This document shows, one piece after another, positions 41,021 to 50,727 of a stretch of DNA of 64,000 nt (positions within the stretch are counted from its first letter, which is position 1; every line of letters begins with the position of its first letter). Source of the stretch: Candidatus Spyradenecus sp. (lineage in GTDB: Bacteria > Verrucomicrobiota > Verrucomicrobiia > Opitutales > UBA953). Below the pieces are notes generated by a model. The model saw only the letters and a program-made list of their open reading frames with translations. It was not told where the DNA came from and searched no databases. The stretch lies in the NCBI GenBank assembly GCA_045535075.1, contig JAZSKX010000001.1, positions 67,317 through 131,316 of the forward strand. Direction: 5' to 3'. Position numbers and translations under genes: made by a program.

Positions 41021-41049
41021 TTGACATGAGAATTAGTCTCATTCTTAAT
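41021..41049 (+). promoter_or_regulatory. Promoter -35 (TTGACA) overlapped by a Fur-box-like palindrome
   Basis: ATGAGA-attag-TCTCAT (41026-41042); TGAGAAT-T-AGTCTCA resembles the 7-1-7 Fur consensus TGATAAT-N-ATTATCA; lies upstream of an iron/heme operon. Confidence 0.6.
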
Positions 41050-41063
41050 TCCGAGCCATTACG

Positions 41064-41204
41064 ATGAAAACGCTTTCGCAGGATGTTTTGAAAAAAATTG
41101 CGGATCAGCTCGCTTCGCTGAAGTTCGGAGAGCTGACCGTAGTGGTTCACGACGGGAAGGTCGTTCAAATCGAAGTAAAGGAAAAAATCCGACTTACTCA
41201 ATAA
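41064..41204 (+). CDS. YezD/DUF2292 family small protein (46 aa)
   Basis: Manual translation MKTLSQDVLKKIADQLASLKFGELTVVVHDGKVVQIEVKEKIRLTQ; FG-x-x-x-V-V-H-D-G-x-V-V-Q-I-E-x-x-E-K-x-R signature. Confidence 0.85.
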   Translation: MKTLSQDVLKKIADQLASLKFGELTVVVHDGKVVQIEVKEKIRLTQ

Positions 41205-41289
41205 CGCGACCGAAACACGGAGCGACTCAAAAAACAACTTTCTCGCCCGCGACCGGACAGACCGGAGTGCGCGACACGACGAGAAAAAC

Positions 41290-43497
41290 ATGAAAATCAA
41301 ACCCTCTTTTTTAATATTCGCAGGAGTAGCGTGCCTGCCCTGCGTTGCGCTTTGGGCGCAGGACACGGCGGGAACGCCGTCCGGAGATTCGCCTTCGGAT
41401 AAAATTTCCGAAGCGGCGGAAAACGTTCCCGCAGAAAAAACGCCCGTCGGCAAAGCGGTGCGCGTTACCGCCGCCAAGCATGAAATGGAAATGGCGGATG
41501 TGCCGATGAGCGTTGCCGTAGTCAGCGGTGACGAAATCACAAAAAGTTCCGCCTCGACGGTTGCGGATTTGCTCGACGACGTTCCCGGCGTGCAGGTCGA
41601 AGCCAACGGAACGCCCGGTTTTAAGCAGGTGAATATTCGCGGCGAAAGCAATCAGCGCGTGCTGATTCTTGTGGACGGGCAAAGAATTTCAGAAACCAAA
41701 GGCATGAACGGCGCGCCGCTTTTAATGTCGGTTCAGGACGTTGAGCGCGTCGAAGTTATCAAAGGTCCGGCATCGGTGCTTTACGGCTCGGAGGCGATCG
41801 GCGGCGTTGTTAATATTATTACGAAGAAATCCGGGAAAGAAGGCGTTCACGGGAGTGCCGGCGTGCGCGGCGACACGGGAACGCGCGGGCTTGACCAATA
41901 CTACGATTTGAATGCGCGCTACGGCGATTTCTCCGCGCGCGTTTCGTTTTCCGACGAAGACCACGGCGACATCGAATCGCCCGACGGGCGCGTGGACCGC
42001 ACCTCCTATCGTTTTCAAAACACGAGTGCTTATCTCGCCTACGACATTTCGGAAAATGCGAGCTTCGGATTAAAATTCGAATCTTTCGCCGGCCGCTCGG
42101 AAGTCGCTTCCGGCGATGATTTGCTGTTCATGGAGCTCCCGCGCTGGGATCGCGAAAAAATCGGGCTTTTTCTTGAAGTAAAAGATATTTCCGAAACTTT
42201 CGTGAAATTCCGCGCAGACGCTTATTTTCAAAAAACGGACAAACATTTTATCCAAGACATTACGCAGACGGTCTCGCCGATGACCATTAACGTGAACGCC
42301 GACCGCCGCAACCGGCACGACGCCTACGGTGCGGAAATGCAGGCGGATTTTTCAATCGCGGACACGCATTATCTCATCGTCGGCGCGCAAATTGATTACG
42401 TAAAATTAGATTCGCACGAAGAAACGACCACGCAAAATTGGATGACGCTCCCGACGGGAACGCGTTACGTCGTCGATATGACGCGCACGAATGATTACGA
42501 CGCGGACATTTTGACCGCCGCGCTTTTTGCGCAGGACGAATGGAATTTTGCCGAAGGCTGGAATCTTGTGCTCGGTGCGCGCGGCACCTATGTAAAAAAC
42601 GAATTCGATGAAGGCACGTCGCACGTCGTTCGCCGCGCGGGAACAAACGCGGGAACGACCGTTGAAACGCTCCCGCAGCAAAGTAAGGAAGACGCGGACG
42701 CGACATTTTCTCTCTCGCTCGTAAACACGCAAATCGAGAATTGGACGTTTCGCGGAACCGTCTCGCAAGGCTATCGCTACGCTTCGATTAACGAGCTTTA
42801 TATCGGCTCCGCGATAGCAAGCACCGAAACGCATGCGAACCCGAATCTCGAGCCGGAAAAAAGCATTAGCTACGAACTCGGAACGCGCTACGACAACGGA
42901 AACTTCAGCCTCGACGCGACCGTTTTTTACACGGATTCCGACGATTACATCGGCACGGAAACCAGAGCCGTCGCGGGAACGGGCGCAACGTCCGTTTGGT
43001 TTGTCAATTACGATTCCGCTAAAAGCTTCGGCGCGGAACTTTCGGCGTCTTATCTTTTCGAACTCGGAAAAGATGCCGCGATAAAACCCTACGCCGTTGC
43101 CACGTTTTTGCGCCGCCGCTTCGACAACGCTTCCGGCTCGACTTACGACACCGGGCAACCGGAAATTTTCGGAAAAGCCGGCGTGCTTGCGACTTACACC
43201 GAAAGCAATCGCAACTGGTGGGCGGATTTCAATCTGCGCGGGAACGCCGCCGCCGAAGAGAAAATCTCCGATGTCAGCGCGCCCGGCGGCTCAAAAATTC
43301 AACGCAAGCCCGGCTGGGCAACGCTTAATTTTGCAATCGGGCTTGATGTTTTTGACAAAAGCGACAGCGCATTTTTTGAAAAGCTCACGCTTGCAATCGG
43401 AGTCGACAACATTTTCGACAAGCGCTACGAGCTTCCGCACCTCGATTACTTTCAGCCCGGGCGCAGCTTCTGGGCATCGCTCAAATATGAGTTTTAA
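41290..43497 (+). CDS. TonB-dependent receptor, probably for heme
   Basis: Plug motifs (IRGE...LILVDG, RVEVIKGPASVLYGSEAIGGVVNIITK), NPNLEPE, C-terminal PGRSFWASLKYEF; operon context. Confidence 0.9.
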   Translation: MKIKPSFLIFAGVACLPCVALWAQDTAGTPSGDSPSDKISEAAENVPAEKTPVGKAVRVTAAKHEMEMADVPMSVAVVSGDEITKSSASTVADLLDDVPGVQVEANGTPGFKQVNIRGESNQRVLILVDGQRISETKGMNGAPLLMSVQDVERVEVIKGPASVLYGSEAIGGVVNIITKKSGKEGVHGSAGVRGDTGTRGLDQYYDLNARYGDFSARVSFSDEDHGDIESPDGRVDRTSYRFQNTSAYLAYDISENASFGLKFESFAGRSEVASGDDLLFMELPRWDREKIGLFLEVKDISETFVKFRADAYFQKTDKHFIQDITQTVSPMTINVNADRRNRHDAYGAEMQADFSIADTHYLIVGAQIDYVKLDSHEETTTQNWMTLPTGTRYVVDMTRTNDYDADILTAALFAQDEWNFAEGWNLVLGARGTYVKNEFDEGTSHVVRRAGTNAGTTVETLPQQSKEDADATFSLSLVNTQIENWTFRGTVSQGYRYASINELYIGSAIASTETHANPNLEPEKSISYELGTRYDNGNFSLDATVFYTDSDDYIGTETRAVAGTGATSVWFVNYDSAKSFGAELSASYLFELGKDAAIKPYAVATFLRRRFDNASGSTYDTGQPEIFGKAGVLATYTESNRNWWADFNLRGNAAAEEKISDVSAPGGSKIQRKPGWATLNFAIGLDVFDKSDSAFFEKLTLAIGVDNIFDKRYELPHLDYFQPGRSFWASLKYEF

Positions 43498-49368: not shown

Positions 49369-49516
49369 CGGATAGGTAAAAACTGATAACTGATAGCTGA
49401 TAAGTAATACCGAAAGCTCATCAAAATGATTACGACTTTTCACTTGCCGGTTATCAGCTTTCCCCTATCCGTTATCAGTTTTTACTTATCCGTTATCAAC
49501 TATCCCCTATCACTTA
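49365..49516. repeat. Heptamer-repeat (CTGATAA-type) inverted element
   Basis: ATAACGGATAGGTAAAAACTGATAAC (49365-49390) pairs 25/26 with GTTATCAGTTTTTACTTATCCGTTAT (49471-49496), plus extra tandem heptamers. Confidence 0.8.
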
Positions 49517-49523
49517 TAAAAAG

Positions 49524-49934
49524 ATGCATTGTCCCGAAATAAACGATTTTGAAATCGACGACGAAATCAGCATCGAGCTGACGCCGCTCATCGACGTCAT
49601 TTTCATGCTTTTGATTTTTTTCATCGTCGCAACGACTTTCGCCAAGCCCGCATTCGACGTGTTTTTGCCCGACGCCGAAAGTGCCAAGCACGTTGACGAA
49701 AAAGAAAAAACACCTGTTTGCACGATTACGATTGATGCCGCGGGAACGATTTTCTTCGACGGAGTGGAAACGCCGCACGCTGCCTTGGCAACTGCTCTTC
49801 GGGAAAACGCCGGGAAAATTTTTGAAGTTTTTTCCGATAAAACCGCGCCGTTCGGCTCTGTGATGAACCTGATGGACGAAGCTAAAAAACAGGGAAATGA
49901 AAATCTGCTTTTCATGGTTGAAAAAAACGACTGA
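49524..49934 (+). CDS. exbD: Biopolymer transport protein ExbD
   Basis: LTPLIDVIFMLLIFF. Confidence 0.92.
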   Translation: MHCPEINDFEIDDEISIELTPLIDVIFMLLIFFIVATTFAKPAFDVFLPDAESAKHVDEKEKTPVCTITIDAAGTIFFDGVETPHAALATALRENAGKIFEVFSDKTAPFGSVMNLMDEAKKQGNENLLFMVEKND

Positions 49935-50727
49935 CGACGCGGAGCGCCTAAGTTCGCTGGGCGCCGTTGCCGTCTGCACGCTTTTGTTTGCGGGAACGCT
50001 CGTTTTGGTTGCCGAAAAAAGCGCGGAAGCGGAAAATGAAGCCGCAGAAACGGCGCAATACGTTCCCGCGCGCATCTCCGTGCGTTTTGAAAATTACGTT
50101 CCCGCGCCTGTTGTCGAAGAAATAGAAGCCGTGCCGGAAGAGCCTCCCGTCGAAACGGAATTTTCACCTGCAAAGCCCGCACCGGAATCTTCGCAAAAAA
50201 CGGAGCCGCCGGAAGCGGGATTTGAAAAAATTGACGAATCCGCCTTGCGCGAAACCTTTACGGAAGAAGCGCCAAAACCGGAAACCCTGCCGGAAAAAGC
50301 GATAGAAGAACCGTCGCCGGAGCCGGAAAAACCGGAGGAAAAAATCCCGCCGCCGGCGCCGCAACCGCAAACAAATTGGGCTTGTGAGCCGCCGCCCGAA
50401 AGCGTTCCCGCAGTTGACGAAGCCGCACGTGCCGCCGCCGAGCAAACGCTTTACGGCGCGCTTGCCGAAGCCGTCTCCCGCAAAAAATTCTATCCGAAGG
50501 CGGCACGACGCAACGGACGCACGGGAACGGTTTTTGTCCGCGTTTCAATCGGTATTTGCGGGAAAATCAAAAGTATCGAGACTGAAAAATCCGGAGCGCA
50601 CCGATCGCTTGTTTCCGGAGCGGAGGAAACGCTTCGCCGCGTTGCTGCCGATTTTTGCGTTCCCGCCGAACTGAGCACCGCGCTTCCCGCCGCCTTCGTT
50701 GTTCCCGTCGTCTACGAATTGAAGTGA
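49897..50727 (+). CDS. tonB: Energy transducer TonB (start uncertain)
   Basis: TM anchor, Pro/Glu-rich linker, YPKAARRNGRTGTV, KSG C-terminal domain; follows exbBD. Confidence 0.82.
   Translation: MKICFSWLKKTTDDAERLSSLGAVAVCTLLFAGTLVLVAEKSAEAENEAAETAQYVPARISVRFENYVPAPVVEEIEAVPEEPPVETEFSPAKPAPESSQKTEPPEAGFEKIDESALRETFTEEAPKPETLPEKAIEEPSPEPEKPEEKIPPPAPQPQTNWACEPPPESVPAVDEAARAAAEQTLYGALAEAVSRKKFYPKAARRNGRTGTVFVRVSIGICGKIKSIETEKSGAHRSLVSGAEETLRRVAADFCVPAELSTALPAAFVVPVVYELK

Follow-up and report, generated by a model that had tools for sequence, protein, structure and literature searches.

Import of heme by Gram-negative bacteria has been described as a passage from a receptor to a periplasmic binding protein and from there to an ATP-binding cassette (ABC) pump (PMC6449446; papers are cited here for the accessible part of their text). 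In Fusobacterium, HmuF hands heme to HmuW and reduces anaerobilin (PMC10404700). Here, a stretch of 64,000 nucleotides from Candidatus Spyradenecus sp. (Verrucomicrobiota, Opitutales), referred to as the window, was analysed. It contains an operon of ten genes in which a TonB-dependent receptor, an HmuF-like flavodoxin and a radical S-adenosylmethionine (SAM) enzyme of the ChuW/HutW clade are combined with a transporter of the energy-coupling factor (ECF) type and an ExbB-ExbD-TonB set. With a probability of roughly 75%, the operon serves the iron-repressed anaerobic acquisition of heme iron, in which heme would be moved across both membranes and its ring opened without oxygen. The parts and the chemistry are already known; the new element appears to be the ECF importer in a diderm anaerobic heme operon.

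The proposed course of events starts from what was directly observed, namely the gene content, the folds, the clade membership and the conserved ligand positions. Lack of iron would cause a Fur-family repressor to leave the box in front of the operon. The receptor, energised by the operon's own TonB-ExbB-ExbD, may then move heme into the periplasm, as its family and its His/Met sites suggest. Judging by the gene context, the membrane-embedded S component would bind heme at its periplasmic side without the help of a dedicated binding protein, after which the T component and the fused ATPase (AA') would drive it into the cytoplasm. By analogy with Fusobacterium HmuF and HmuW (PMC10404700), the HutW-like radical SAM enzyme probably receives heme from the HmuF-like flavodoxin and would open the ring to yield anaerobilin and Fe2+, after which the flavodoxin would reduce the anaerobilin. 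In this way the roles of ChuX and ChuY would be filled.

The ECF module and its gene neighbours

The S component was modelled with a predicted local distance difference test (pLDDT) score of 88, and the top 14 structural matches among 48,161 chains were all ECF S components. The best match had a Z of 12.0 and a root mean square deviation of 4.2 over 171 aligned positions; for helical bundles, caution is due below a Z of 13, but the run of matches represents one family. The Foldseek E value was 0.022. The nearest structural relatives are the S components for thiamine, pyridoxamine, pantothenate and riboflavin. A sequence search of the PDB with the S alignment returned no relative and a plasmid search with the S component no match. 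The family PF09605 presumably also includes SiaF and HtsT. Within it, the clade of the S component is marked by the motif GGG(M/P)NP in loop 1; Arg148 and Glu149 are conserved as well. The fused ATPase had the ECF ATPase profile TIGR04520 as its best NCBIfam match (283.8 bits, cut-off 315).

Among 401 Verrucomicrobiota genomes, 32 had a HutW match; the S clade was present in 15, which belong to five genera, so that kin inflate this count. Each of the 15 S-clade genes has a HutW match on the same strand at a distance of less than 200 nt. Twenty of the 34 HutW places in the phylum were examined: seven have an ECF module, seven a binding protein with permease, six neither and none both. Across loci, the binding-protein ABC transporter is replaced by ECF.

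The same association was seen in a metagenome scan that covered the best 80 of 368 S relatives. Forty of these loci were well covered, that is, with at least 4.5 kb upstream and at least 4 kb downstream of S. In all 40, S, T and A/A' share one operon, as is the case for group I (dedicated) ECF transporters, and T adjoins S. HutW is likewise present in 40 (two of them frameshifted), flavodoxin in 34, the receptor in 31 and ChuX in 25. ExbB (14), TonB (10), PNPOx/HutZ-like proteins (9), Fur (5), HmuY (2) and ChaN (2) are rarer, and a binding protein, a permease or ChuY was found in none of the 80 loci. Pfam searches on 75 of 157 open reading frames (ORFs) in gaps confirmed 16 ChuX, two HmuY, two ChaN, four PNPOx and one Fur. 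Clustering at 60% S identity reduced the 40 loci, 38 of which were aligned, to 13 groups, and pairwise S identities track those of T (0.77), the receptor (0.80) and the radical SAM enzyme (0.69), which partly reflects shared ancestry. Some metagenome loci are identical to named proteins of Deltaproteobacteria, Desulfobulbus and Desulforegulaceae, others near-identical to those of Candidatus Cloacimonadota (99.8%) and Kiritimatiellia (97%). The S clade also occurs in the isolates Pseudodesulfovibrio alkaliphilus, Desulfoluna spongiiphila, Desulfurispira natronophila and Humidesulfovibrio mexicanus, for which the gene context was read in homologues of 82-97% identity. From this gene context, the ECF transporter looks dedicated to heme. 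The identity of S, T and fused AA given in an earlier note on the window agrees with Pfam, NCBIfam and the S model, and the arrangement extends beyond the phylum to Desulfobacterota and Cloacimonadota. Kiritimatiellia-type loci (L039, L040, L044, L049, L057-L071) have the order HutW-S-T-AA with no receptor nearby, often with a second ABC protein of about 600 amino acids downstream and a type II/IV secretion ATPase gene upstream.

Outside the operon, the genome has a Peripla_BP_2 protein at C5 and a FecCD permease with an ATPase at C16. This ATPase passes the heme-ABC cut-off (269 vs 261), so that heme could cross by another route. It is conceivable, if unlikely, that the operon handles heme while heme crosses the inner membrane through this trans-encoded binding-protein ABC system, and that the ECF transporter carries another needed micronutrient such as a flavin or uses the trans binding protein as a shuttle. 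The vitamin S components among the structural neighbours and the growth of C. jejuni chuBCD mutants on heme (PMC6449446) would fit such a division of labour. However, the S-component fold does not tell the substrate, and the two importer types exclude each other at the HutW loci examined (7, 7 and 0 both; n=20). The C16 permease has BtuC as its best match, and no Fur-like box was found at C5:108k or C16:160k with up to two mismatches. The binding protein and the FecCD system most likely serve a separate receptor that is led by a cobalamin riboswitch. Heme transport by the ECF module itself therefore remains the preferred reading.

Radical SAM enzyme, flavodoxin and receptor

The radical SAM enzyme has the CxxxCxxC motif at C67/C71/C74 and a HemN-like class C fold, and its sequence matches in the PDB are HemN and NocN. 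The extra cysteine of HemN (C71) is missing; at its place stands F76, as in ChuW. Among NCBIfam profiles, TIGR04107 reached 386.8 bits (cut-off 400), HemW 158.8 and HemN 117.2. As the cut-off of TIGR04107 was not reached, the protein was filed as a member of the ChuW/HutW clade and not as a formal equivalog. A quick maximum-likelihood tree (86 rows, long branches flagged) placed it in a clade of 80 rows together with E. coli ChuW and the HutW proteins of Vibrio, Rahnella and Cereibacter, with a Shimodaira-Hasegawa-like approximate likelihood ratio (SH-aLRT) of 97. HemN, HemW and Fusobacterium HmuW fell outside this clade. The ChuW-type residues G153-R154, R186, H295 and N307 are present in the enzyme and not in HemN/HemW, for which separate HemN-like and HemW-like genes exist elsewhere in the genome. 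The tree thus upheld the earlier assignment to ChuW/HutW, and an identity as HemN or HemW was rejected. Opening of heme to anaerobilin would be the activity expected by analogy with this clade.

Solitary HutW-clade genes with no heme genes found nearby were seen in other genomes of the same order (L036, L043, L045, L046); the tree places three of them (L043, L045, L046) as sister to the ECF-linked clade. Six HutW-ChuX fusion proteins of about 640-680 amino acids were also found (P0345, P0351, P0352, P0359, P0379, P0391), and many HutW proteins carry a PF08369 domain.

The flavodoxin gene adjoins that of the radical SAM enzyme. The sole PDB match of the protein was FldH (8G64, E 1.3e-17), and it is 37% identical to HmuF of F. 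vincentii. Its His132 corresponds to the heme ligand His134 of FldH and to H134 of F. vincentii HmuF, and 52 of 54 homologues retain this residue; His87 corresponds to His89 of FldH. Neither ChuX nor HmuY was found in the genome, which is 99.45% complete, and tblastn with three ChuY queries returned no match in it at E 1e-3. The lack of ChuX and ChuY would be accounted for by an HmuF-type flavodoxin that takes over heme delivery and anaerobilin reduction, as in PMC10404700. The statement that ChuX, ChuY and a periplasmic binding protein are lacking stands for the operon but, as regards the binding protein, not for the genome. Lack of ChuX was rejected as a defining trait of the module, given its presence in 25 of the 40 loci. 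Since the module in Desulfobacterota and Cloacimonadota usually comes with ChuX, the lack of ChuX is a lineage trait.

The receptor had TIGR01785 as its best profile with 204 bits (cut-off 317), and PhuR was its first match both in the PDB sequence search and with Foldseek. Structure searches do not part heme receptors from those for B12 or copper. Heme receptors are defined by FRAP and NPNL motifs and two conserved His ligands (PMC6449446); the receptor has YRYA...NPNL in the FRAP-NPNL region. Met139 of its plug is found in 38 of 38 module receptors, near ChuA His114 (one alignment column off). At position 509 in the FRAP-NPNL loop, beside ChuA His448, 24 of the 38 have His and 12 have Met. 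This interchange of His and Met is the pattern that would be expected of a heme-iron ligand.

Several observations weigh against heme-iron acquisition. The radical SAM enzyme stays 13 bits below the curated cut-off, the receptor lies well below that for heme receptors, and its fold ties ChuA with BtuB (Z 36.6 vs 36.4). Both this strain and L001, the operon locus of the related genome G402, have Ile at position 509, and the loop-1 Met of the S clade (78/85) is Pro throughout this genus (7/85). Nine of the 40 well-covered loci have no receptor nearby, and many of the 80 metagenome loci are kin. The C16 ATPase mentioned above belongs here as well. The genome has its own heme synthesis (ALAD, ferrochelatase, HemN-like), and the herbivore gut is poor in dietary heme.

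The tie with BtuB bears on a reading that must be called extremely improbable, in which the cargo of receptor and ECF transporter is cobalamin or a siderophore and the radical SAM enzyme is of the HemN/HemW type. B12 ECF transporters are known, which would agree with it. It is contradicted by the tree, which excludes HemN/HemW, by the separate HemN-like and HemW-like genes and by the homologous loci, which neighbour ChuX, HmuY and ChaN. An Rfam search found no cobalamin riboswitch in the window; in the genome, it is found only before the other TonB receptor (BtuB-like gene). Cobalamin, the cargo that the earlier note had set against heme, is unlikely and was rejected on the position of this riboswitch.

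Ile 509 would also fit a module that is a heme system in general, with a copy impaired at the receptor in this strain. Its codon, ATA, is one transition from ATG, 36 of 38 receptors have His or Met, and a search of 19 genomes of the genus yielded no S gene in 11. We regard impairment as very unlikely, as the ten frames are intact, L001 has the same Ile allele, no alternative letter at codon 509 appeared among the rows listed (two DNA runs) and another His (H515) follows six residues further.

Cargo other than heme iron was considered too. The system could import or open other tetrapyrroles, such as metal-free porphyrins, chlorophyll breakdown products or siroheme-type cofactors, or it could salvage intact heme rather than mainly iron. 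ChuW/HutW accept metal-free porphyrins (PMC10114669), the Met of the S loop is lost in the genus and that of the receptor loop in this strain, the flavodoxin also scores on the BilS profile (105 bits, cut-off 155), and cytochrome bd and catalase of the host need heme. Against this stand the Fur-like box common to the operon and the feoB locus, the retained heme-iron ligand His132 of the flavodoxin, the host's own heme synthesis and the receptor loop Met or His kept in close relatives. A main function of this kind is therefore quite improbable, and acquisition of heme iron is the reading followed below.

Promoter, layout and probable transfer of the operon

A putative promoter was recognised by sequence inspection in front of the operon; it was not listed by a consensus promoter scan. 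The inverted repeat in its spacer (Table 1) has the 7-1-7 form, which we take to be the Fur-box consensus. The genome was searched with up to one mismatch to the symmetrised form of the operon's own box, which the operon site matches by construction. Two boxes were found, the operon's and one before the feoB locus, compared with 0, 0 and 1 in three shuffles. Between the second box and feoB stands an ORF, which starts 15 nt after the box. A box stands at the same position after TTGAC in five of five relatives, with a close match in three. The genome has a Fur-family gene, which scores under both the Fur and the PerR cut-offs. A Fur-like box was matched in only 4 of 20 distant modules searched from rough ORF starts, a count that is uninformative because of these starts. 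The operon may be iron-repressed through a Fur-family repressor. The ORF between the second box and feoB (293 amino acids, C11:47717-48598 of this genome; L147:3718-4599, - strand) matched no NCBIfam family at E 1e-10 and is possibly an outer-membrane iron-related protein.

Table 1. Features of the operon and its surroundings, in window coordinates
Feature	Position	Strand	Basis or remark
Putative promoter, -35 TTGACA 41021-41026, weak -10 41044-41049	41021..41049	+	sequence inspection
Fur-like 7-1-7 inverted repeat	41027..41041	.	fills -35/-10 spacer, directly after TTGACA
Probable introgressed block: coding span near-identical to another species' operon, other promoter and flanks	41059..50724	+	DNA comparison
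DUF2292 (YezD-like) leader, 46 aa	41064..41204	+	Pfam PF10055, E 4.9e-17
TonB-dependent receptor (plug and barrel), probable heme receptor	41290..43497	+	Pfam; TIGR01785 best NCBIfam
HmuF/FldH-like flavodoxin with helical cap (Flavodoxin_3)	43530..44027	+	PF12641
7-mer-repeat intergenic hairpin	44031..44142	.	genus-wide dispersed element
ChuW/HutW-clade class C radical SAM enzyme (anaerobilin-synthase-like)	44166..45605	+	TIGR04107, tree
ECF S component, Trep_Strep/MptD family	45602..46180	+	PF09605
ECF T component	46255..47094	+	PF02361 CbiQ, E 2.5e-12
Further 7-mer-repeat hairpin	about 47100-47217	.	repeat composition
Fused AA' ECF ATPase, likely start ATG 47232	47202..48641	+	two ABC_tran domains
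ExbB	48742..49368	+	PF01618
Further 7-mer-repeat hairpin	49350..49517	.	repeat composition
ExbD	49524..49934	+	PF02472
TonB	49897..50727	+	PF03544

All ten genes lie on the + strand and every reading frame is intact (ORF listing, Pfam and NCBIfam), and the ten co-oriented genes behind a Fur-like box described in the earlier note were recovered. The gaps between genes range from -38 to 155 nt, and the radical SAM stop and the S-component start overlap by 4 nt. Most gaps (44031-44142, 47100-47217, 48642-48741 and 49350-49517) contain hairpins of 7-mer tandem repeats that are dispersed through the genus and swapped between strains; in place of the one at 44031-44142, related strains have other letters (joint 44027-44163). 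The DUF2292 leader, with a weak OscA-like match, heads the operon in this genus and is also present in the relatives L001, L003, L005, L047 and L048; only one of the 80 metagenome loci has DUF2292. L003 is labelled as uncultured Enterobacteriaceae and by sequence clearly belongs to this Opitutales genus. Just upstream, on the - strand, 38542-39342 and 40124-40864 encode a second TonB and a PEP-CTERM protein. The host genome of 1.95 Mb is 99.45% complete with 0.13% contamination. Runs containing the stretch are animal gut samples, and several close relatives come from ruminant gut. Two proteins that are identical to radical SAM enzymes of other members of the genus bear the name Candidatus Spyradosoma. 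Contigs from RNA libraries (two runs of one study) overlap parts of several operon genes; contigs cannot show transcription and were not used as evidence.

Aligned DNA of this genome (G000) was compared with that of G402, of its sister G273 and of other relatives. The ten operon genes are 97.8-100% identical to those of G402, while the flanking genes reach 66-79%. Compared with G273, the operon genes are 93-98% identical, which is about the distance between G402 and G273. Matching contigs from two DNA runs span 41059-50724, and one of them has other letters before 41059. The nearest species by ychF (84-85%) are G407, G408 and G403, and no S gene was found in these three; in the genus, it was found in 8 of 19 genomes. 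Gene order around the operon site differs even among the nearest species. The two species share, at 98% identity, a pair of AhpC and an AhpF homologue (C11:51554-53943 here; L001:4185-6576). In G402 and G273 this pair sits immediately upstream of the heme operon, and here about 55 kb away from it.

The operon is one of many such blocks. When 400 one-kb fragments of G402 were aligned to this genome, 291 aligned; their median identity was 77.9%, and 97 of them reached at least 95%. In 421 kb sampled, 47 near-identical blocks (94-99.8%) made up 24%, or 22% without L001, which had been chosen for its operon; the background identity outside the blocks is near 75-78%. Of 88 block ends, 41 lie at most 10 nt from an ORF end, compared with 2% of random positions, and lost synteny alone also gives ends at gene borders. 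In the window, 10387-16277 and 18027-24659 are 96-98% identical to G402, 89-95% to G273 and mostly 79-81% to G407 and G403; 31768-38518 has the reverse pattern and is nearer to G407 and G403. From this pattern, the present genome is the likely recipient of the operon block and kept its own promoters. The blocks suggest massive allele replacement between species, with an assembly artefact as the alternative; as contamination is only 0.13%, replacement is favoured over a mixed bin. A word resembling an uptake sequence occurs 36 times in the operon (3.7 per kb vs 2.6 genome-wide) and at 0-0.2 per kb in nine operon homologues from outside the genus, and this richness suggests that the operon has long been resident in the genus. 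The word and a ComEC gene in the genome fit interspecies allele replacement.

Comparison with known systems

Full-text literature searches, which did not extend to subscription papers, returned neither a heme ECF transporter from a diderm nor an anaerobic heme operon from Verrucomicrobiota or from sulfate reducers. In their accessible text, the heme reviews PMC12670364 and PMC6449446 contain no ECF transporter; in that of PMC10404700, the gene-cluster legend names neither ECF nor Verrucomicrobia, and the word ECF does not occur. The earlier suggestion that the system is new in the phylum held for the literature searched, and has to be narrowed as the same S clade occurs with HutW, HmuF and receptor in Desulfobacterota and Cloacimonadota and heme ECF transporters of Gram-positive bacteria are known.

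On balance, we lean slightly towards a wider interpretation that joins these observations. The S clade with GGG(M/P)NP would serve diderm anaerobes as a dedicated importer of heme, which it would receive from a TonB receptor without a periplasmic binding protein. Given HutW and HmuF beside it, anaerobic heme breakdown would be common not in pathogens but in sulfate reducers, in Cloacimonadota and in Verrucomicrobiota of the gut. In this genus, the operon would move between species of about 75% identity within a genome-wide exchange of gene-bounded alleles. If true, one clade of an orphan S-component family would be given a substrate, and the passage of heme across the periplasm without a carrier would become a mechanistic question. 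The range of anaerobic heme degradation would then take in sulfate reducers as well as further anaerobes of the environment, for which heme recycled from dead cells may matter as a source of iron. As named isolates carry the S clade, this is testable.

Among Gram-positive bacteria, S. pyogenes reportedly has a heme ECF transporter, to go by the title of a 2020 paper by Chatterjee. LhaSTA of S. lugdunensis, which is iron-regulated, likewise unites a dedicated heme S component, T component and ATPase in one operon (PMC7299338), and Lsa1836-1840 of L. sakei is a dedicated heme ECF transporter that also has a fused AA' (bioRxiv 10.1101/864751). The likeness is one of gene make-up and described function. 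In contrast to the present operon, these transporters belong to monoderm hosts with no outer-membrane receptor, and neither HutW nor HmuF is described with them in the accessible text.

The operons chuA/chuTWXYUV of E. coli O157:H7 and hutWXZ-tonB-exbBD-hutBCD of Vibrio share the radical SAM clade and the TonB receptor with this locus, and the Vibrio hut locus is likewise linked to ExbBD-TonB. Unlike the present operon, they import heme through a binding-protein ABC transporter and use ChuX or HutX as well as ChuY or HutZ.

The hmuTRUVWF operon of Fusobacterium nucleatum (PMC10404700) resembles it in the combination of a TonB receptor, a class C radical SAM enzyme and a cap-bearing flavodoxin with the equivalent of His134. 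Both are without ChuX and ChuY, and the iron response of the Fusobacterium system may have its counterpart in the Fur-like box. They differ in the radical SAM enzyme, which in the tree is nearer to ChuW/HutW than to HmuW, and in the inner-membrane step. In Fusobacterium, this step is carried out by the binding protein, permease and ATPase HmuTUV (locus seen in F. vincentii), whereas here S, T and AA' of an ECF transporter stand in their place, probably as a non-orthologous replacement of an HmuTUV-type ABC importer.

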